Part shown: positions 22,128 to 36,835 of the stretch, in pieces
How positions within the stretch are numbered: position 1 is the first letter of the stretch
Layout: each line of letters begins with the position of its first letter
IMG/VR virus record: IMGVR_UViG_3300014204_000110
DNA: 64,000 bases
Source: a virus
Taxonomy: Duplodnaviria > Caudoviricetes
Reading direction: 5' to 3' (one strand)
Translations under genes and position numbers: made by a program
Notes under the pieces: model-generated
The model's input: the letters and a program-made list of their open reading frames with translations, nothing else
Told to the model about the DNA's origin: nothing
Database searches by the model: none

Positions 22128-22535
22128 ATGGACACACAACTATGGGACATCTTCGATGTCTTCTTCAAAGATGCACTGGACACTTCCAGTACCTACACAA
22201 CTCTTACGAACAGCAAACTACATTATCCAATTGATGTTAAGGAGACAACCTCTGGAATTCAATTTGATGTAGCTATTGTTGGGGCTGAGAAAAAAGATGT
22301 AATTATCGAAACCGAAAACGATATATTACGAATAATTTATCCTAATAATGAAAATAAAGACAGCACTGAAAAGTATCTTTATAAGGGGATTACACGTAAG
22401 TCTTTCAATTTTAATTGGAAGCTTGGTGGCAAGTTTGACGTCGCTCAGACAGTGGCAGCTATGGATAAGGGATTACTTACGATTAAGATTCCTTACACTA
22501 AGAACGCTACTAAGAAACGTGTTGAAATAGTTTAA
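22128..22535 (+). CDS. Small heat-shock protein (Hsp20/alpha-crystallin family)
   Basis: YPIDVKE, AIVG..K.DV, YLYKGITRKSF, A.MDKGLLTI.IP and C-terminal VEI motif. Confidence 0.9.
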   Translation: MDTQLWDIFDVFFKDALDTSSTYTTLTNSKLHYPIDVKETTSGIQFDVAIVGAEKKDVIIETENDILRIIYPNNENKDSTEKYLYKGITRKSFNFNWKLGGKFDVAQTVAAMDKGLLTIKIPYTKNATKKRVEIV

Positions 22536-22539
22536 ACAT

Positions 22540-22560
22540 TTGGGGAGATATTCTCCCCAA
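22540..22560 (+). terminator. Terminator-like hairpin after Hsp20
   Basis: TTGGGGAGA-TAT-TCTCCCCAA. Confidence 0.6.
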
Positions 22561-22767: not shown

Positions 22768-23082
22768 TTGATACATCTAAGAGATCCATATATAGAGAGT
22801 ATTGTAGAACTTAATTCATTTAAATTATTTTATGAAAGTAATTTTATATGTGACTGTAATGCAATTGAAATAACATCAAATACATTAAAAGGATTTTTTA
22901 CTACTAATTTTAATCTTGATATTTATCAAGATAAAACATATACGATTCTTATAAATTATAATAATACAATATATAATTTAAACTATGTTAAACTAACATC
23001 CAGACATCGTTATGTTGATAATTTTAATATACCAATTAGTCTAGATACTAAATACGAGTTTAAGTATGAACATATCTCTTAG
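22768..23082 (+). CDS. LRDxY-tagged protein 1: minimal tail-tube-like protein
   Basis: MIHLRDPY tag; aligns by eye to the spliced tail tube (ICDCNAI/IGNLNGI, GFFTTNFN/GSLIFTNFD, DTKYEFKYEHI/ETQMTFVARGI). Confidence 0.55.
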   Translation: MIHLRDPYIESIVELNSFKLFYESNFICDCNAIEITSNTLKGFFTTNFNLDIYQDKTYTILINYNNTIYNLNYVKLTSRHRYVDNFNIPISLDTKYEFKYEHIS

Positions 23083-23458
23083 AGATCGAGCAGATCCAAT
23101 ATATCCAGAAAATAGTTTTAATAGTATCTGGTATGCAACAAGAATGCTTATAACTAGTGGATCTATGTTTAAGTTAGAATATAATCTTCCTAGACGTTGG
23201 GGTAAGACTCATCTATGTGGAAAACTCATGGAAGAATTTGAAAATGTAATATATATTGCTAGTAATGATAATATGTGTAAATATTTCTGTTCTACATATG
23301 GATATATAACTAGAACTTTTAGTGCTAATTATATACTTGATTGTTTAAGAGGTCGAATAATAAATTATATTTTATTTGATGAAGTATCTTCTGTTCAAGT
23401 AAATAACGTATTATCTTATGTACATCCTAAAGGTTATCTTGCAGTGAGATCATTATGA
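23066..23458 (+). CDS. LRDxY-tagged protein 2: truncated terminase-ATPase-like P-loop domain
   Basis: PRRWGKT Walker A; LRGRIINYILFDE matches TerL LRGLSGDMVFIDE with identical spacing. Confidence 0.65.
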   Translation: MNISLRDRADPIYPENSFNSIWYATRMLITSGSMFKLEYNLPRRWGKTHLCGKLMEEFENVIYIASNDNMCKYFCSTYGYITRTFSANYILDCLRGRIINYILFDEVSSVQVNNVLSYVHPKGYLAVRSL

Positions 23459-23688
23459 TTCACTTAAGAGATCCATACATAAATGATTTTCCTACTCAAA
23501 GTCCGTCTAGTTCAGATTCAAGTAGTTCAAGTAGTTCAGAAAGTTTTAGTATTAGTGATAGTGCAAGTATTTCAATGAGTGCTAGTCCAAGTATAAGTAA
23601 TGAAAGAAATTATGAACATACACCTAAGAGATCGATACTTTCAAGAATATCCAAAAGATTGGTATCGATTATATCTTTTACTAAGTAA
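23455..23688 (+). CDS. LRDxY-tagged protein 3: serine-rich low-complexity protein
   Basis: MIHLRDPY tag, then SPSSSDSSSSSSSESFSISDSASISMSASPSIS. Confidence 0.55.
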   Translation: MIHLRDPYINDFPTQSPSSSDSSSSSSSESFSISDSASISMSASPSISNERNYEHTPKRSILSRISKRLVSIISFTK

Positions 23689-24022
23689 AAATATAAATGA
23701 AGATAGATTTTTTACCATAAATTTATCTAGACATAAACATTTTGAAACCGTTACTTTAGGTTTAAATTTATTAAATGATTTTGAACATCTTTTAATGATT
23801 GTTAAAAACGCTGGTACTGAAATAATGCTTAGAAAAAATAGTAATTTAAATAATATAAATCAATATAATTTATATTCTGGAGTAGAACTTAAAAATTGTG
23901 GATGTGATGTACATCTAAAATTAAAATATAAATATATATTTATGGATAACTTAGATGATGAACTTATAAAATACTATTCTAATCTTGGACTTAGTTATAT
24001 TAGTATAAAGAACAACTTATGA
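23612..24022 (+). CDS. LRDxY-tagged protein 4: degenerate paralogue of protein 2
   Basis: Start reassigned to ATG at 23612 (MNIHLRDRY); INLSRHK... and KYIFMDN at the Walker A/B positions. Confidence 0.5.
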   Translation: MNIHLRDRYFQEYPKDWYRLYLLLSKNINEDRFFTINLSRHKHFETVTLGLNLLNDFEHLLMIVKNAGTEIMLRKNSNLNNINQYNLYSGVELKNCGCDVHLKLKYKYIFMDNLDDELIKYYSNLGLSYISIKNNL

Positions 24023-24228
24023 ACATAAATTTAAGAGATCGATACATTGCTGAGACACTTACAATCAAAGATATTTCTAATATGGTTGAGTGGTTGATGA
24101 AACAACCATCACAAGAATATATAATTCCAGTAGATAGTTATTATGATAAATTAATAGATGATTATTTTAATGAGCGAATTAAAAAATTAAAAACTAGGAA
24201 ACTATATGACAATAAATCTAAGAGATAG
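24019..24228 (+). CDS. LRDxY-tagged protein 5: capsid-protein fragment-like
   Basis: MNINLRDRY; ungapped match to MCP SMTANDVFEMYAYLL...KL. Confidence 0.5.
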   Translation: MNINLRDRYIAETLTIKDISNMVEWLMKQPSQEYIIPVDSYYDKLIDDYFNERIKKLKTRKLYDNKSKR

Positions 24229-24415
24229 ATACGTAGAAGAACCAAAAGTATGGCCAGGTAAATTTGAATATACTGATACATTAGACTTTGATAATCACAT
24301 CATTCAACAATGGGTGCAAAATGCTAGAAGAGCACTATCTGCTGAAGTTAGACGAACTGTATTAGAACAAATACCGCGTTATAATCAAGGTGGAATAATT
24401 GAACCTAAATCTTAA
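24206..24415 (+). CDS. LRDxY-tagged protein 6: capsid spine-helix fragment-like
   Basis: MTINLRDRY; WVQNARRALSAEVRRTVLEQI vs MCP WLRAAGKAMARCKERIGMKLI. Confidence 0.5.
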   Translation: MTINLRDRYVEEPKVWPGKFEYTDTLDFDNHIIQQWVQNARRALSAEVRRTVLEQIPRYNQGGIIEPKS

Positions 24416-24701
24416 AAATAAATATCCAGATATCTTTAATGCTGTCTATGATAGTGTTACTGATTTTACAGACTTACCTGATGAAGTTATCTCTAAGATA
24501 GCTTATCGAGCAGGTACTGTAGCTTGTGAAGCTCACGAGCGAGAACTAACCAAGGAGAAATCAATGTCAGATGATCTTAAAGATCTTGTAACGTCTACAG
24601 ATGTTCCAAGTATTTCAAAACAAGAGATGCGAAAGACTCACGCTAATCAACATCAGCAAGCAAAGAAAATAACAGGAAAAGCTAAGAAAACAAAGAAATA
24701 A
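24399..24701 (+). CDS. Hypothetical protein with degenerate tag (MNLNLKNKY)
   Basis: Overlaps previous ORF; possible internal start at 24563 after GGAG. Confidence 0.5.
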   Translation: MNLNLKNKYPDIFNAVYDSVTDFTDLPDEVISKIAYRAGTVACEAHERELTKEKSMSDDLKDLVTSTDVPSISKQEMRKTHANQHQQAKKITGKAKKTKK

Positions 24702-24731: not shown

Positions 24732-24757
24732 ATAGACATCACAATTGATGTCTATTT

Positions 24758-26665
24758 TTGTCTTTGAGGGAAAACAAAATGAGTGTTACTTATCCAAATA
24801 TTGCTAGTGAATTTGTTGCTTTACGATCTTATTGTAGATGGTTACCAGATCAAGAAAGAAGAGAAACTTGGGAAGAAGTTGTAAATCGAGTTGTTAATTT
24901 TTTAAAAACAGAAACTCGTCATGCTGATAGAATTCCTAATAAAGTATGGACTTCTATTGAAGAAGGAATGTTAACTTTTAATGTAATGCCAAGTATGAGA
25001 CTTGCAGCTACTGCTGGGCCTGCTGCAAAAAAAGATAATATTTGTCTTTTTAATTGTTCATATTTACCAATTGATAGTATTAAATCATTTAGTGAATTAT
25101 TATATATATTAATGTGTGGTACAGGAGCAGGATTTAGTGTAGAAAAAGAAAACATTGATAAACTTTCTATTATTAAACATCCAAATTCTCAAAGAAGAGA
25201 TGATTATATAATTGAAGATTCTCGTGAAGGTTGGGCTAAAGCTTTTCAGTTTGGTCTTGAAACATGGTTTAATGGAGAAGATGTTCATTTTGATTTTTCA
25301 AAACTCAGACCATATGGTGCTTCATTAAAAACAATGGGTGGAAGATCTAGTGGTCCTGATCCATTAAAAGAACTTCTTGAATTTACAAAAGATATTATTT
25401 TTAACGCAAAAGGAAGAAAGTTAACTTCTTTAGAATGTCATGATATTTGTTGTAAAGTTGCAGAAGTTGTAGTTGTTGGTGGTACACGAAGATCAGCAAT
25501 GATTTCATTCAGTGATCTCGATGATCAATTAATGTGTCATGCAAAAGAATTTCCAATTCCACCACATCGATTTATGGCAAATAATTCTGCTGTATATAAA
25601 GAAAAACCTGATACTATTACTTTTCTTAAAGAATGGAGTTCATTAGCTGAATCTGGAAGTGGAGAAAGAGGAATTATAAATGTTAGTAATCTTGATGCTA
25701 TATGTAAAGATAGAAAATTTACAAAAGATATAAGATTCAATCCTTGCTCAGAGATTCTTCTTAGACCATACGAATGTTGTAACTTATCAGAAGCAGTTAT
25801 TAGAAGTGATGATGATATTGGAGATCTTGTTGAAAAAGTAACTACTGCTACATGGTTAGGTGTTATTCAAGGAACATTTACACATTTTCCTTTTTTAAGA
25901 CCTGAATGGAAAAAGAATTGTGAAGAAGAAAGATTAATTGGTGTAAGTCTTACTGGTCAAATGGATAATCCAGAAATTCTTTCAGAACAAGTGCTTAAAC
26001 AATTAAAAAAAGTAGTAATAAAAGTTGCAAAACATGCTTCTTCTATTCTAGAAGTGAATACACCAAAAGCATATACTTGTGTTAAACCATCTGGAACTGT
26101 TTCACAAGTTGTAGATAGTGCTTCTGGTTGTCATCCTAGATACAGTAAATTTTATATAAGAAGATATAGGATTTCTAGTTCTGATCCATTATTTCATCTT
26201 ATGAGAGATCAAGGAATTTCATATAAACCTGAAGTTGGTCAAACAGAAGATAATGCTACAACAATGGTTGTTGAATTTCCAATTAAAGCACCAGATAAAG
26301 CTATTACAATTAAAGATTGGTCATCATCAGATCAACTTAATTGGTATCTTAAAGTTCAAAAAAATTGGAGTACTCATAATGTTAGCAATACAGTTTACGT
26401 AAAAAAAGATGAATGGTTAAAAATTGGATCTTGGGTTTATGATCATTTTGCTGAAATAGTTGGTGTAAGTTTTCTTCCAATTGAAGATCATAAATATGAA
26501 TTAGCACCATATGAAGAAATTACTGAAGATAAATACAATGAATTATTAAAATCTTTTCCTAAATTAGATTTTTCAGTATTAGGAGAATATGAAAAACTCG
26601 TTGGTGATAAAACTGAAGCAGCTAAACAAATGGCTTGTTCTTCAGGATCTTGCGAAATAACATAA
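24758..26665 (+). CDS. nrdJ: Class II (adenosylcobalamin-dependent) ribonucleotide reductase, monomeric type (likely start ATG at 24779)
   Basis: FNC, GGRSSGP, VVVGGTRRSA, NPCSEI, CNLSE, CVKPSGT and C-terminal CSSGSC; no beta subunit nearby. Confidence 0.92.
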   Translation: MSLRENKMSVTYPNIASEFVALRSYCRWLPDQERRETWEEVVNRVVNFLKTETRHADRIPNKVWTSIEEGMLTFNVMPSMRLAATAGPAAKKDNICLFNCSYLPIDSIKSFSELLYILMCGTGAGFSVEKENIDKLSIIKHPNSQRRDDYIIEDSREGWAKAFQFGLETWFNGEDVHFDFSKLRPYGASLKTMGGRSSGPDPLKELLEFTKDIIFNAKGRKLTSLECHDICCKVAEVVVVGGTRRSAMISFSDLDDQLMCHAKEFPIPPHRFMANNSAVYKEKPDTITFLKEWSSLAESGSGERGIINVSNLDAICKDRKFTKDIRFNPCSEILLRPYECCNLSEAVIRSDDDIGDLVEKVTTATWLGVIQGTFTHFPFLRPEWKKNCEEERLIGVSLTGQMDNPEILSEQVLKQLKKVVIKVAKHASSILEVNTPKAYTCVKPSGTVSQVVDSASGCHPRYSKFYIRRYRISSSDPLFHLMRDQGISYKPEVGQTEDNATTMVVEFPIKAPDKAITIKDWSSSDQLNWYLKVQKNWSTHNVSNTVYVKKDEWLKIGSWVYDHFAEIVGVSFLPIEDHKYELAPYEEITEDKYNELLKSFPKLDFSVLGEYEKLVGDKTEAAKQMACSSGSCEIT

Positions 26666-27620
26666 ATGAAGCAAATAAAAACATATCTAGAATATAACTT
26701 AGATAGTAAAAACATAATTATAATAAGTAATACTTATAAAGGAAGTCCTAAGATGTATTATAAATATGATATCTTGATAGGATCTAAAGAAATTATAACT
26801 AAATATAAAAGTGATCTTGTTCCAGAACATCTGCTTAAAACTGGATGGAAACCGAAGGTGGTTTATTTATGAAAGCAAAATTAATTATTTTAAAACACGA
26901 ACTAAATAATTGGTCAGAAAGATATAAAAAAGAAGCTGAAAGATGTCTTAATAATTGTAGTTTAGAATGTGTTGGATATAAAATAAGACAAGAAACTGTT
27001 GATGTAATTGTTGAAATGTTAAACAAAATATTAAATGAAGAGGAAAATAATGAGTAAAGAAGATAAATTAATAGAAGTGTTAAATAATATGATTAAATTA
27101 GTAGAACCAATTTATTACAAAGATTTTAATAAGAAAATAAAAGCAATTAATAATGAAGATCTTATCAAATATGAAGAAAAAGAATCTGTTGTTGGAGTTA
27201 CAAATATAAACAATAATGATTATGCAATTTCAACTTTAAGTATAATTGCTACAATAACTGATATTTTAATTGATAAACGTTTAGCATTTAATGTTGAAGA
27301 TACTGGAGTTATAAGTGGAGTTAAATTTTATGAACCTTTGGTGTAAATTAGGATTTCATGATTATGAAACTATAAAATCTTTATCAATAAGAGATATAGA
27401 AAACGATATAGCTATTAAAAGAGGAATTACTCCAATTCTTGACTATTATACAACTGGAATAACTTCTTATTTTAGTCAAAAAATATGTTTAAATTGTTGT
27501 AAGTATATTGATGAAATTACACCAGAAATTAAAAGACAAGAAAAAGTAGTAGATAAATCAAATATTCGAGAAAACAAATTAAAAGAAATACTTTCTAAAA
27601 AAGGAATTAATAATGAGTGA
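26666..27620 (+). CDS. Four small hypothetical proteins (26666-26872, 26845-27057, 27035-27346, 27315-27620)
   Basis: Coupled ORFs; last has an LWCKLGFHDY...C..C pattern. Confidence 0.55.
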
Positions 27621-28134
27621 AATTAAGTTACAAATAGTTAAAATGTTTGATGATGTTAAGTTACCTAGTAAGCAGAATCCTACTGATAGTGGATTTGATC
27701 TTTACGCTTATAGTTTTAAAAAGTACTATCAGAATCATGGTAGTAACTATGAACGACTTTTTGAAGATGATAAAGTAACTCCTTTTATACGTGATGGGGA
27801 ACTTGAACTGGCTAGTCTTGATAGAGTTCTTATAGGTACTGGTCTTAAGATGACAGTTGGACCTGGATATGAACTTCAAGTACGTGCTAGAAGTGGACTT
27901 GCTCTTAAACAAGGATTATCATTAGTAAACGGAATTGGCACAATTGACTATTCTTATCGTGACGAATGTTGTGTTATACTTATTAATCTTTCTAGAAAGA
28001 ATCAAGTGATTAAACTAGGAGATAGAATAGCACAAATTGTTCCTATGGCGGTTGCTTTGCCTGAAATACAGGTTGTTCAAACTTTAGATGGTGTTGATCG
28101 TGGTGGTGGTTTTGGGCATACGAATAACAATTAG
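27613..28134 (+). CDS. dut: dUTPase (trimeric type)
   Basis: SGFDL, RSGLALK, GTIDYSYR, RIAQ, RGGGFGHT motifs. Confidence 0.95.
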   Translation: MSEIKLQIVKMFDDVKLPSKQNPTDSGFDLYAYSFKKYYQNHGSNYERLFEDDKVTPFIRDGELELASLDRVLIGTGLKMTVGPGYELQVRARSGLALKQGLSLVNGIGTIDYSYRDECCVILINLSRKNQVIKLGDRIAQIVPMAVALPEIQVVQTLDGVDRGGGFGHTNNN

Positions 28135-33490: not shown

Positions 33491-36400
33491 ATGAATAATT
33501 CAAATATAATAAAAACATTTTCTGATCCACTAATATGGTGTGAGAGTTATTTAAGAGATCCTAGAGATAGGGATAAACCTCTTGTTCTTCGATCATATCA
33601 ACAAAATATTCTTAAAAATACTCGTAAATATAAGAGCATGATAAGTCGATGGGGTCGTCGTTGTGTTGCTGAAGATAGTCCAGTACAATTATATAATGGA
33701 ACTACAATTAAAATACAAGATATTAAAGTTGGTTATAAAGTAGCATCTTGGTCTTTTAATAAACAAAAAGCAGTTCCTGGAAATGTAAGTGAAGTATTTA
33801 ATAATGGTATTCAAGATATATTTGAAGTGTTACTTGAAAATGATTTAATTATAAAATGCACATCCAATCATCCAATTTTAATTTTAAGAAATACTACATA
33901 TTTATATAAACAAATAGATAGAGATTTATCTATAAATGATATGTGTGTAATTTTAAATAAAGATCACACATTTTCTACTTCTAGAATTGTAGATATAACA
34001 TATATTGGTAAAAAACAAACATATGATATAACTGTTGATAATTATAGTAATTTTTCTTGTAATTTTATCATTTGTCATAATAGTGGAAAAAGCGTAACTT
34101 TCTGTGCAGATACATTATGGTGGGCGCAGGCTTATCCACTAGTACGAATGATAGAAACTAAAGCAATAAAACAGAAGTCATTTAGAGTACTTGTCTTTTG
34201 TCCTTATGAATCACAAATTAAAGAACTCTGGAATACTTATACACAATTGATTGGTGATAGTCCATTACTTATGGATCAGTTAGTTAAGATAAGAACTTCT
34301 GATATACATCTTATTGAATTTAAAGGTACTGACGATAGTACTCGTGGAAGCACAATTGAAGGATTCACGATTGGTATTAGTTCATCTAACCAAGGTACAA
34401 GTTTACGCGGATTATGTCTTGGTGAAAACACAAGAATATCTATGATAGATGGTAGTACAAAAAATATTAAAGATTTAAATATAAACGATAAAATAATATC
34501 TTATAATATTAATTCTAAATCATTTGTTGAAGATTCAATTGCTTATATTGCTGATGAAGAAGAAAAAGAATTATTTGAGATAGAATTTCAATCAGGTAGA
34601 AAAATACAATCCTCAAAAGATCATAAATTTCTTACAGATAATGGATGGAAAAAACTTGAAGATATAACATTATTTGATAAAATTAAATCATCTTTTAATT
34701 TTGTAACAAATTCAGTAACAAATCCTCAAGATGAGTATGTCAAAATATGTGCATATTTAATAGGAGATGGATGTATATCAGATAATAGAATTAAAAACAG
34801 TACCATTCCTTTTACTAATACTAATAAAAAATTAATAGATGATTATAAAAATTGTCTAAAAACTTTAGGATTTTATTTTAGTGAACAAAGAAAAAAAGAA
34901 TGGGTAAATAAACAACCAATAGATATAGTTGTTACTGGTTTTAAAAGAAAACAACCAAAATTTTATCAATTTTTAAAAGATTATGAGTTATTAGGTAAAA
35001 TTCATAATACTAAAAGTGTTCCAGATATAATTAAAAAATCATCTACGTTAAAAAAAGCATTATTTTTAAGACATTTATTTTCAACTGACGGCTGGTGTAG
35101 TTTATATATATCTAAACAAAATTATAATCAGTGCGAAATAGGATATTGTTCAACATCCTTCAAATTATGTCAAGATATTCATGATATATTATATCAATTT
35201 GGAATATATAGTAAAATTCAAACTAAATATTATTATGTTAATAATATCAAATTTATTAAATATGAATTAAAAATTAGAAGTAAAACTAATATTAAAACTT
35301 TTTTTCAAAAAATTGGATATATTTTTGGAAAAGAAAATAGTTGTAAAATAGTAGATAATATTGTTAGTGTTGGTGTTCATGCTGATAAAATTAATCCAGA
35401 ATATGAAAAAATAATTTCTATAAAATCTATAGGTTTAAAAAAATGTTATGATATTACTACAAAAAAATACCATAACTTTATAGCAAATGGAGTTATTACT
35501 CATAATTCTGGAGATATGGTTTTTATAGATGAAATGGATTATATTCCATCTGATATTATGGAACAAGTTATATTACCTATTACTACAACACACGTTGATG
35601 TAAGACTTCGAATTTGTTCTACTCCTAGTGGTAAACGTGAGAAATTTTTCCATTTTTGCTCAGATTCAAAACAACTTGGATGGTTTCATACTCATATACA
35701 ATCATGGCATCCAGATAATACTAACTGGAGAAGTATAGAACAAGCAAGAAAACTTGGAATACCAATAGAAGAAAGTACTGAATTTCAAGTAAGACATAGT
35801 ACAACAACTTCTGCTTTTGAACGTGAATATGGTGCTGAGTTTGGTGAAGAATTTGGTGGAGTATATAAACATACACTTATAAATAAATCTATTACTAAAT
35901 ATAATCGTAATATAGATACAAGAGATCTAGATGTATTTGATCCTGGATTTGAACAAAATCCAGAACATAAATATATTGTTGGAGTTGACTGGAATAGTTA
36001 CGTTAATGGTGGTCAGGTTGTAATGGTTGAATACTGTAGTACTCCAACATTGCATACTTTTTATGACGATGATAGACAAGAAGATGTTATTGTTGATTTC
36101 ACTGGCAAATATAGATTATTTTATAGAAGAAGTATAAAGTCTCAAGAATCCACACAACGTATGACTCGTAATGAAGTTATAAGATTAATGACTTATTATA
36201 AAGTTGATTACGTGTATGTTGATTATGGAGCTGGTGATACTAATATCGAAGAATTATCTCTTTATGGAAGAGGTCATCCAGAATTAAAACTTTCTGAAAA
36301 ATTAGTCGTCATAGATAGTGGTGCTGTTGCTGAACATTATGATCATATAATTGGAAAAAAAGTTAAAAAAAGAAATAAGACTTTAATGGTAAACTTTTCA

Positions 36401-36835
36401 GTAATATCTCTTGAAGAAGGAATGTTTTTACTTCCAAAAGAAGAAGATCAAGATACTAGACTTGTTGGTCAGATGAGAAGTTATGTTGTTAAAAATATAA
36501 CAGCTCGTGGAGAATATTCATATGAAGGTGATGATCATATACTTGATGCTTTTAATTTAGCTATATATGGATTTCAACAAAAGTTCGGTCAATTGATGGC
36601 ATCTAGAATTAAGTATGATATAAATATTACTGCTGATCCTAGAATGCAATACTTTCCTAAACGTGCTGGAAATATAACAACACCTATTCCTATTAAGATC
36701 AAAAACTCTTATAGTACACCAATAAGAGATCCTGAAAAACCATTGGCCTATCCTCATAAAAATAATCGATCAGCATTTCCATTGGTTGGTGCTGGACGAT
36801 CATTACATTTTAATACAAGACGTGGATCTTTTTAA
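33491..36835 (+). CDS. terL: Terminase large subunit with two inteins (about 610 aa after splicing)
   Basis: Spliced Walker A WGRR|SGKS, Walker B LRGL|SGDMVFIDE, motif III STPSG, nuclease GVDW...YVD...DDHILDA. Confidence 0.93.
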   Translation: MNNSNIIKTFSDPLIWCESYLRDPRDRDKPLVLRSYQQNILKNTRKYKSMISRWGRRCVAEDSPVQLYNGTTIKIQDIKVGYKVASWSFNKQKAVPGNVSEVFNNGIQDIFEVLLENDLIIKCTSNHPILILRNTTYLYKQIDRDLSINDMCVILNKDHTFSTSRIVDITYIGKKQTYDITVDNYSNFSCNFIICHNSGKSVTFCADTLWWAQAYPLVRMIETKAIKQKSFRVLVFCPYESQIKELWNTYTQLIGDSPLLMDQLVKIRTSDIHLIEFKGTDDSTRGSTIEGFTIGISSSNQGTSLRGLCLGENTRISMIDGSTKNIKDLNINDKIISYNINSKSFVEDSIAYIADEEEKELFEIEFQSGRKIQSSKDHKFLTDNGWKKLEDITLFDKIKSSFNFVTNSVTNPQDEYVKICAYLIGDGCISDNRIKNSTIPFTNTNKKLIDDYKNCLKTLGFYFSEQRKKEWVNKQPIDIVVTGFKRKQPKFYQFLKDYELLGKIHNTKSVPDIIKKSSTLKKALFLRHLFSTDGWCSLYISKQNYNQCEIGYCSTSFKLCQDIHDILYQFGIYSKIQTKYYYVNNIKFIKYELKIRSKTNIKTFFQKIGYIFGKENSCKIVDNIVSVGVHADKINPEYEKIISIKSIGLKKCYDITTKKYHNFIANGVITHNSGDMVFIDEMDYIPSDIMEQVILPITTTHVDVRLRICSTPSGKREKFFHFCSDSKQLGWFHTHIQSWHPDNTNWRSIEQARKLGIPIEESTEFQVRHSTTTSAFEREYGAEFGEEFGGVYKHTLINKSITKYNRNIDTRDLDVFDPGFEQNPEHKYIVGVDWNSYVNGGQVVMVEYCSTPTLHTFYDDDRQEDVIVDFTGKYRLFYRRSIKSQESTQRMTRNEVIRLMTYYKVDYVYVDYGAGDTNIEELSLYGRGHPELKLSEKLVVIDSGAVAEHYDHIIGKKVKKRNKTLMVNFSVISLEEGMFLLPKEEDQDTRLVGQMRSYVVKNITARGEYSYEGDDHILDAFNLAIYGFQQKFGQLMASRIKYDINITADPRMQYFPKRAGNITTPIPIKIKNSYSTPIRDPEKPLAYPHKNNRSAFPLVGAGRSLHFNTRRGSF
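33662..34081 (+). mobile_element. Mini-intein (140 aa) in the TerL Walker A motif
   Basis: Starts CVAEDS, block B TSNHP, ends ICHN followed by Ser. Confidence 0.92.
34415..35506 (+). mobile_element. Intein with LAGLIDADG endonuclease (364 aa) upstream of the TerL Walker B motif
   Basis: Starts CLGENT, has AYLIGDG and LRHLFSTDG blocks, ends ITHN followed by Ser. Confidence 0.93.

Follow-up and report, generated by a model that had tools for sequence, protein, structure and literature searches.

The stretch of DNA analysed here, a window of 64,000 nucleotides from the IMG/VR virus record IMGVR_UViG_3300014204_000110, carries two short open reading frames (ORFs), ORF1 and ORF2, in an operon of seven small genes on the + strand. 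A first-pass annotation had described both as truncated domains resembling the ATPase of a large terminase (TerL), one of them catalytically degenerate, and had proposed that they act as terminase decoys or dominant-negative inhibitors. The ORF calls and translations agree with it on the coordinates and the quoted motif strings: residues 40-48 of ORF1 read NLPRRWGKT and residues 94-106 read LRGRIINYILFDE, and ORF2 has NLSRHKHFET at the place of the P-loop and YIFMDN at the place of Walker B. As it had said, both stand alone and are very short; they are P-loop domains (RecA-like, of the additional-strand, catalytic-glutamate or ASCE class), with neither a nuclease nor a second domain. The features of the two genes and their operon are as follows.

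22768..24701, + strand: operon of seven overlapping small genes whose N-termini follow M-x-(x)-x-LRD(R/P)Y, hereafter the tag; ORF1 is the second gene and ORF2 the fourth (ORF calls, overlaps, tag)
23066..23458, + strand: ORF1, 130 residues, a minimal RecA-like (ASCE) P-loop protein that stands alone and keeps its motifs intact (ORF call, homologs, AlphaFold2 model, fold matches)
23066..23092, + strand: N-terminal tag of ORF1, MNISLRDRA, common to six neighbouring ORFs and 11 of the 15 family members; residues 1-10 are of low confidence in the model
23186..23209, + strand: Walker A motif or P-loop of ORF1, LPRRWGKT, residues 41-48, with the P-loop arginine R43; the family alignment A2 shows little or no variation at P42, R43, G46 and T48, and K47 is present in ORF1
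23348..23353, + strand: R95-G96 of ORF1, in the stretch linking alpha2 to beta3, with the Walker B Asp 10 residues further on; R95 is a candidate trans arginine finger; Arg in 8 and Gly in 11 of the 15 family members
23369..23383, + strand: Walker B motif and catalytic Glu of ORF1, ILFDE, residues 102-106; D105 is invariant in A2 and lies on strand E101-105 of the model
23612..24022, + strand: ORF2, 136 residues, a paralog of ORF1 predicted to be catalytically dead (pseudo-ATPase), recognized by hhalign, by the tag-stripped family hidden Markov model (HMM) and by its orthologs P0023 and L001 6399-6758
23723..23749, + strand: degenerate P-loop of ORF2, LSRHKHFET, with GKT changed to HFE, aligned by hhalign to PRRWGKT; R40, K42, F44 and T46 are invariant in three orthologs
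23939..23950, + strand: degenerate Walker B of ORF2, FMDN, with the catalytic Glu changed to Asn and the upstream Arg-Gly also lost (hhalign); YKYIFMDNLD is invariant in the orthologs

ORF1 and ORF2 are real, conserved genes. Two close homologs of ORF1 were found, at 50% and 61% identity; the close homologs span 105-136 residues, and NLPRRWGKTHLCGKLM, LRG, FDEV and the C-terminal LSYVHPKGYL are invariant across them and ORF1, whose own C-terminus lies 24 residues past Walker B. In the syntenic contig L001, the gene order is HSP20, a 101-residue gene, an ORF1 homolog and an ORF2 homolog. A HMMER search with a profile built from ORF1 and these two homologs, covering 1.84 billion representative proteins of any length, recovered 13 further small relatives of 128-163 residues, all of them stand-alone, and no fused or longer relative was found in this length-unrestricted search. 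Because every true relative recovered measures 105-163 residues, a length of about 130 residues is the native architecture of ORF1, and the short form is not the truncation for which it had been taken. The long multi-stretch hits of the profile (P0006-P0008, P0014 and P0020) were judged to be false positives; P0007, the sole one inspected, is a repeat protein carrying TRRWTATDACGN. In A2, the 15-sequence alignment of the family, P42, G46 and D105 are invariant and R43 and T48 nearly so, and an Arg-Gly precedes Walker B in about half of the members. The ORF1 family is a widespread group of uncharacterised, stand-alone phage proteins of 105-163 residues.

Database comparisons placed the family among small viral proteins with no described role. 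By features, the 30 nearest clusters in the ESM Atlas are all viral hypothetical proteins without a common Pfam family, and the three of these given in detail score 0.95-0.96, with proteins of 130-149 residues and 71-168 members each. No match for ORF1 or for the family member P0018 was obtained with tblastn against 50,697 GenBank phages; the same search with P0021 gave weak matches to Pseudomonas phage Viktualia and to gp446 of phage 201phi2-1, a 172-residue hypothetical protein without a virion-protein annotation. Six of the 15 family members matched phrog_2586 (best P0021, at 2.1e-10) and ORF1 itself reached an E value of 0.27, its link to this group being transitive through the family alignment. 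The members of PHROG 2586 and other small phage P-loop proteins (201phi2-1 gp446, a 149-residue protein of Vibrio phage JSF10 and a 152-residue protein of Enterobacter phage phiEap-3) are like the ORF1 family in their stand-alone form, minimal fold and length of about 145-175 residues; unlike ORF1, the best-matching member P0021 lacks the LRDRY tag, and P0021 and P0022 have GNT in place of GKT. Among the Pfam profiles, AAA_14 (PF13173) was matched by most members (11 of 15 at E<=0.1, best 3.3e-5), over a span from Walker A to Walker B; ORF1 scored 20.8 bits against it (E 4e-4), below the gathering cut-off of 27 bits. ResIII was matched by two of the 15 members and DEAD, Viral_helicase1 and RNA_helicase by one member each, and the NCBIfam and PADLOC scans of the family returned nothing more than scattered sub-threshold P-loop or helicase matches.

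The AlphaFold2 model of ORF1 computed on A2 reached a local confidence score (pLDDT) of 90.4 and a predicted template-modelling score (pTM) of 0.82; a run from just three sequences gave a pLDDT of 45, and the 15-sequence run was the one used. The first ~10 residues are of low confidence, and the N-terminal tag is predicted to be disordered. The remainder forms a single alpha/beta domain in the order helix, beta1, P-loop, alpha, beta2, alpha, short beta, alpha, beta3 with the Walker B D-E, alpha and beta4, in which the P-loop follows the strand at 35-41, Walker B lies on the strand at 101-105 and the end strand occupies 123-129. The best matches in BFVD were small uncharacterised phage proteins (149 residues in Vibrio phage JSF10, 152 in phiEap-3 and 172 in 201phi2-1; E 8e-6 to 2e-5), followed at lower ranks by helicases of superfamilies 1 and 2 (SF1/SF2), with a TerL at rank 45. 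Foldseek against the PDB placed the TmcA helicase module, alphavirus nsP2, RadD, XPB and Dda at the top and the P74-26 TerL (4znl_B) at rank 9 (E 2.6e-3, TMq 0.51). In a wide VIA-align comparison with the PDB, XPB had Z 11.6 (root-mean-square deviation (rmsd) 3.5, 112 residues aligned), nsP2 Z 11.5 and Dda Z 11.1, and the phiV-1 TerL from the Avs3 complex (8dgc_E) had Z 9.5 (rmsd 5.0, 111 aligned); on a second look, the best 50 rows (Z>=10.0) were all domain 1 of helicase type, with no terminase among them. Overall, the matches to helicase domain 1 (XPB, NS3, nsP2, Dda, Upf1) have Z 10-11.6 and rmsd 2.3-3.5 over 95-118 residues. The structure matches of ORF1 in the ESM Atlas were ResIII/DEAD proteins (TM 0.65-0.72), and AAA+-type structures (IstB, ORC, RuvB) fitted the model worse than helicases did (TM 0.41-0.45). 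The predicted fold of ORF1 is therefore best described as a RecA-like ASCE domain of the helicase/terminase type, the model leaning 1-2 Z units towards helicases, a difference that is not decisive.

Like domain 1 of SF1/SF2 helicases (XPB, flavivirus NS3, ResIII/DEAD, Dda, Upf1), ORF1 has motif I (GKT) and motif II (D-E-x-x), and several family members have T-T-P or N-T-P past beta4, resembling motif III. ORF1, at 130 residues in total, lacks several features of these helicases: a second RecA-like domain, the arginines of motif VI, the Q motif and nucleic-acid-binding insertions. Helicases with a complete functional architecture had been named beforehand as the best hits that would speak against a terminase origin; helicases are indeed the best hits, and the complete architecture is absent from ORF1. 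P-loop ASCE ATPases are a familiar class of protein, of which ORF1 is an unusual, minimal form.

The comparison with terminases was made against the phage's own enzyme, which is encoded in the same window.

33491..36835, + strand: large terminase (TerL) of this phage, 1114 residues with two inteins, the comparator (phrog_2 at 9e-21; Pfam Intein_splicing and LAGLIDADG_3)

A mini-intein of 140 residues interrupts the P-loop of this TerL (WGRR|SGKS), and a LAGLIDADG intein of 364 residues stands directly before Walker B (LRGL|SGDMVFIDE). Splicing in silico at the C...HN|S boundaries, SRWGRR|SGKS and SLRGL|SGDMVFIDE, gave the joined SRWGRRSGKS and SLRGLSGDMVFIDE, so that the TerL motif strings quoted earlier after intein removal are correct. 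At the level of motifs, the likeness of ORF1 to TerL stood up: the two share an arginine in the P-loop (R43/R44 of ORF1), another in the alpha2-beta3 segment (R95), 10 residues ahead of the Walker B Asp, and a Walker B Asp followed by a catalytic Glu (D105-E106). These positions are the ones described for TerLs (PMC5727402), and ORF2 keeps just the P-loop Arg and the Asp. The same layout of which the first-pass annotation had spoken is true of the motifs, the Arg and the Walker B Asp being spaced by 10 in ORF1, in a podovirus TerL and in this phage's TerL after splicing. It is not true of the whole domain, since the distance from the Walker A Lys to the Walker B Asp is 58 residues in ORF1 versus 116 in the spliced TerL. 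Like the TerL ATPases of T4 (gp17), P74-26, D6E and this phage, ORF1 has the ASCE fold, the P-loop arginine, the alpha2-beta3 arginine and the catalytic Glu, and some members of its family likewise have (S/T)-T-P after beta4. In P74-26 TerL, R139 is a proven trans finger and sits between alpha2 and beta3 (PMC5727402), the position at which R95 sits in ORF1. The P-loop arginine is not exclusive to terminases and occurs in other multi-subunit ATPases too (PMC5727402).

Beyond these motifs, no kinship with terminases was detected. None of the Pfam terminase models was matched at E<=0.1 by any of the 15 family members, and the TerL PHROGs were each matched by a single member (phrog_2 at E 0.0072 by ORF1, phrog_9 at E 0.0035 by P0017). 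BLASTP of ORF1 against the spliced TerL returned nothing at E<=5, the tag-stripped family HMM scored 3.9 bits on it, and a Smith-Waterman comparison of ORF1 with the ATPase domain of the own TerL was no better than chance over 500 shuffles (z = -0.84). Sequence searches of the PDB at E<=10, the family profile included, gave no significant match and no terminase; ClpB, Schlafen, guanylate kinases and XPB were listed. Neither the lid subdomain nor the C-terminal RNase H-like nuclease of TerL is present in ORF1, which ends after beta4 at residue 130, or in its relatives of 105-163 residues. A podovirus TerL from IMG/VR that shares RRWGKTHLC with ORF1 was rejected as evidence of ancestry, having been fetched with the very peptide that it shares. 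The proposal of a terminase as the specific parent was thus not supported, with no Pfam terminase match in 15 members, similarity to the own TerL at or below the shuffle level and helicases ahead in the fold searches, and these comparisons indicate that ORF1 is neither a member of the terminase family nor a copy of this phage's TerL. Even so, the mode of action of ORF1 may resemble that of a single subunit in a ring ATPase of terminase type.

ORF2 proved to be a degenerate paralog of ORF1. An hhalign comparison of A2 with A4, the alignment of three ORF2 orthologs, gave a probability of 97.8% (E 1.1e-12, 112 columns). The tag-stripped family HMM also found ORF2, with 26.3 bits over residues 26-137 of the stop-to-stop frame from 23597, that is, over almost its whole length, indicating that the homology of the two genes is independent of their shared tag. 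The tag-bearing start of ORF2 is at 23612, and a further in-frame ATG lies at 23600. In the column pairs of hhalign, GKT of the ORF1 family stands against HFE, D-E against D-N and R-G-R against L-K-L, in agreement with the description of ORF2 as catalytically degenerate; from its residues, ORF2 would lack everything needed for ATP binding, hydrolysis or finger donation. Its orthologs are P0023, at 89% identity, and the L001 gene, at 40%; the source of P0023, as of P0005, is a 1161-bp JGI contig. R-x-K-x-F-E-T at the P-loop place and YKYIFMDNLD at the Walker B place are invariant in the three orthologs, and because the replacement motifs are invariant, ORF2 is maintained rather than decaying. 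Genes like ORF2 were seen nowhere but beside the closest ORF1 homologs, with the two adjacent in L001, and the distant family members have other neighbours. The ESM Atlas gave no model and no usable match for ORF2, and a complex prediction for ORF1 (A2) with ORF2 (A4) scored 0.00 with an uncertain partner fold, which speaks neither for nor against binding. We regard the motifs of both genes as more than chance because the genes have conserved homologs, the family folds at a pLDDT of 90.4, ORF2 is homologous to ORF1 and its orthologs keep the degenerate motifs.

A tagged ORF of 128 residues directly upstream of the ORF1 homolog in the contig L007 (2859-3245) was tried as a counterpart of ORF2 and rejected, its BLASTP E value being 21 and the family HMM having missed it; a C-I-L-D-N stretch in this ORF looks like a degenerate Walker B.

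The shared N-terminal tag is a more intriguing feature than ORF1 and ORF2 themselves. ORF1 starts with MNISLRDRA and ORF2 with MNIHLRDRY, and five further ORFs in 22768-24701 are tagged; in the extended pattern, M-x-(x)-x-L-R-D-R-(Y/P/L)-x-(P/E), the tag heads mostly unrelated consecutive small ORFs. BLASTP of the seven tagged ORFs against the window ORFs of >=100 residues and the spliced TerL gave nothing below E 0.003 except the tagged ORFs among themselves. Tagged ORFs also occur in L001 (5712-6758), L007 (2859-4389), L009 (91-1265) and L010 (4284-8411). The codons of the tag vary synonymously (Leu as CTA 7, TTA 6 and CTT 6 times; the second Arg as AGA 7 and CGA 5 times), indicating that the peptide is what is conserved. 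Around residues 10-15, a hydrophobic-x-Glu is often present after it. Residues 20-27 of TerL (33548-33571) read YLRDPRDR, and the DNA there, TTAAGAGATCC, equals the core of the tag DNA; this identity may be due to chance or may be a clue to what the tag imitates. Between ORF1 and ORF2 lies a serine-rich ORF of 77 residues (23455-23688), which shares 77 nucleotides with ORF2 in a different frame. The syntenic L001 lacks a counterpart of this ORF, which bears the same tag, MIHLRDPYI, as the ORF at 22768 and may be a remnant of recombination between tags.

The operon is translationally coupled and is bounded by terminator-like hairpins at 22540-22560 and 24732-24755. Four further genes of the window belong to its setting.

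22128-22535: gene for an HSP20 small heat-shock protein
24758-26665: gene for a class II ribonucleotide reductase (RNR)
27613-28134: gene for a dUTPase
627-1232: gene for a uracil-DNA glycosylase family protein

The order of HSP20 and tagged genes recurs in L001, and that of tagged genes, RNR and dUTPase in L007 and L010. A gene of the ORF1 family stands upstream of RNR in four divergent contigs (the window, L007, L010 and L011), and dUTPase follows in the window, L007 and L010; the RNR is of class II in the window and L010 and is NrdD in L007 and L011. The class II RNR of the related phage contig L010 (9424-12162) carries a LAGLIDADG intein; together with the inteins of the TerL in the window, it indicates that inteins occupy different essential genes across this phage group. 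The window has a G+C content of ~29% and comes from a contig of 229 kb, and its genes for a tail sheath, a portal, a major capsid protein and the large terminase of 1114 residues identify this uncultured phage as a jumbo myovirus. The portal shares ~30% identity with its counterparts in Bacillus phage 0305phi8-36 and phages like it, and blastn of the region against GenBank matched RNR fragments alone and found no close relative.

ORF1 is thus a stand-alone protein of the RecA-like ASCE fold class with intact motifs for nucleotide binding and hydrolysis, and it is conserved across divergent phages. We favour, with moderate confidence, the reading that it is the native, full-length product of a small family, consisting of an LRDRY tag and one minimal RecA-like ASCE domain and serving as an accessory nucleotide-binding or ATPase module, with ORF2 as a lineage-specific pseudo-ATPase. 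ORF1 would bind ATP, and because one RecA-like domain is not enough for a complete active site, it would most likely hydrolyse ATP only upon self-association or upon docking on a partner. R95, placed as the terminase finger is, may complete the active site of a neighbour in trans. Since ORF1 has no substrate-handling domain, a small nucleotide-dependent switch or adaptor acting during infection is more likely than a motor. ORF2 would be a duplicate of ORF1 that arose in this phage lineage alone and lost the GKT, the catalytic Glu and the Arg-Gly; with these motifs lost and the replacement residues conserved, it is probably a maintained pseudo-ATPase, whose role would be one of binding only, possibly by pairing with ORF1 or regulating it.

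Several observations weigh against this reading. The Walker A Lys or the catalytic Glu is lost in P0009 (GTT, D-S), P0021 and P0022 (GNT) and P0010 and P0015 (D-D), and such repeated loss of catalytic residues suggests that ATP hydrolysis is not essential to the role of the family, which weakens an enzymatic role and keeps a role as scaffold or carrier of the tag alive. R95 is kept in just 8 of the 15 members. The placement within the ASCE class is insecure as well, sequence profiles leaning towards AAA_14 (below threshold) and structure towards helicase domain 1. The losses of Lys and Glu are what would be expected if the family were one of non-enzymatic binders, in which the RecA-like fold is a scaffold and the tag is the activity (targeting, capsid packaging, timed degradation or docking), with ORF1 and ORF2 as cargo or adaptors. 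The tag is kept in 11 of the 15 members at ~25% identity, heads unrelated neighbours in at least five phage contigs and is conserved as a peptide, as its synonymous codon variation shows, all of which would suit such binders; however, the strict conservation of every catalytic motif among ORF1 and its close homologs favours nucleotide chemistry for this branch, and we consider this alternative unlikely, if still worth serious attention. We think it improbable that ORF1 and ORF2 form a split, miniature engine of two RecA domains like an SF1/SF2 helicase core, with ORF1 as domain 1 and ORF2 as the domain 2 without a P-loop. Domain 2 of helicases is a RecA-like duplicate without a P-loop, the nearest folds of ORF1 are helicase domain 1, ORF2 is a degenerate duplicate and the two genes adjoin in the closest relatives; yet most loci of the family (L007, L009, L010 and L011) have no neighbour like ORF2, so the family works without it, and both proteins lack a nucleic-acid-binding element, with the Arg-Gly of ORF2 lost and no conserved arginine motif resembling helicase motif VI evident in it.

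The proposal of the first-pass annotation, that ORF1 and ORF2 derive from a terminase ATPase domain and act as decoys or dominant-negatives against sensing by Avs1-3 or against the packaging motors of competing phages or satellites, seems very improbable to us. It can draw on three features common to ORF1 and the spliced TerL, namely the D-E, the P-loop arginine and an R-G lying 10 residues ahead of Walker B, on the weak matches of ORF1 (E 0.0072) and P0017 (E 0.0035) to TerL PHROGs, and on the TerL ATPases among the fold matches (4znl at E 2.6e-3, 8dgc_E at Z 9.5); the RRWGKTHLC shared with the podovirus TerL is counted as circular, that protein having been fetched by this peptide. Against it stand the chance-level similarity to the own TerL (z -0.84, no BLASTP hit at E<=5, 3.9 bits with the HMM), the lack of a Pfam terminase match in any of the 15 members, a PDB profile search that listed ClpB, Schlafen, guanylate kinases and XPB, the 50 best structural rows, all helicases, and a distance between Walker A and Walker B half that of TerL; the P-loop arginine, moreover, is found in other multi-subunit ATPases (PMC5727402). 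A literature search found no published terminase decoy against Avs, the word 'decoy' occurring there for mass-spectrometry databases alone. We give still less credence to ORF1 being an accessory factor in the phage's module for nucleotide metabolism, such as a small regulator of RNR that depends on NTP. Its place upstream of RNR is kept in four divergent contigs despite the differing RNR class, with dUTPase next in three; a terminator-like hairpin nevertheless separates the operon from the RNR gene, the fold is ASCE and helicase-like rather than kinase-like, a conserved gene order in phage early regions often reflects no functional link, and we know of no RNR partner of this kind. The LRDRY tag recalls, as we take it, the capsid-targeting and cleavage sequence of T4. 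By analogy, a conjecture that we rate as the most doubtful of all is that the tag is a targeting signal (for example, for capsid targeting and cleavage in the manner of T4 internal proteins) or a docking peptide, and that ORF1 and ORF2 are live and dead bare ATPase cores that would jam host proteins recognising or using such cores; if so, the host targets might be defence helicase-nucleases, the motor subunits of restriction systems and terminase-sensing STAND receptors.

A sizeable, unannotated phage family shrinks the ASCE ATPase fold to about 115 residues, and modules as small as these would lend themselves to testing how much of a RecA-like domain can be dispensed with in nucleotide binding and trans-activated hydrolysis. 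For annotation, the case is a warning that motifs alone do not justify the labels 'terminase-like' or 'AAA+ ATPase' for genes of the ORF1 type. An active-looking ORF1 and a conserved, dead ORF2 lie close together in one operon, and pseudo-ATPase partners are a recurring regulatory theme.

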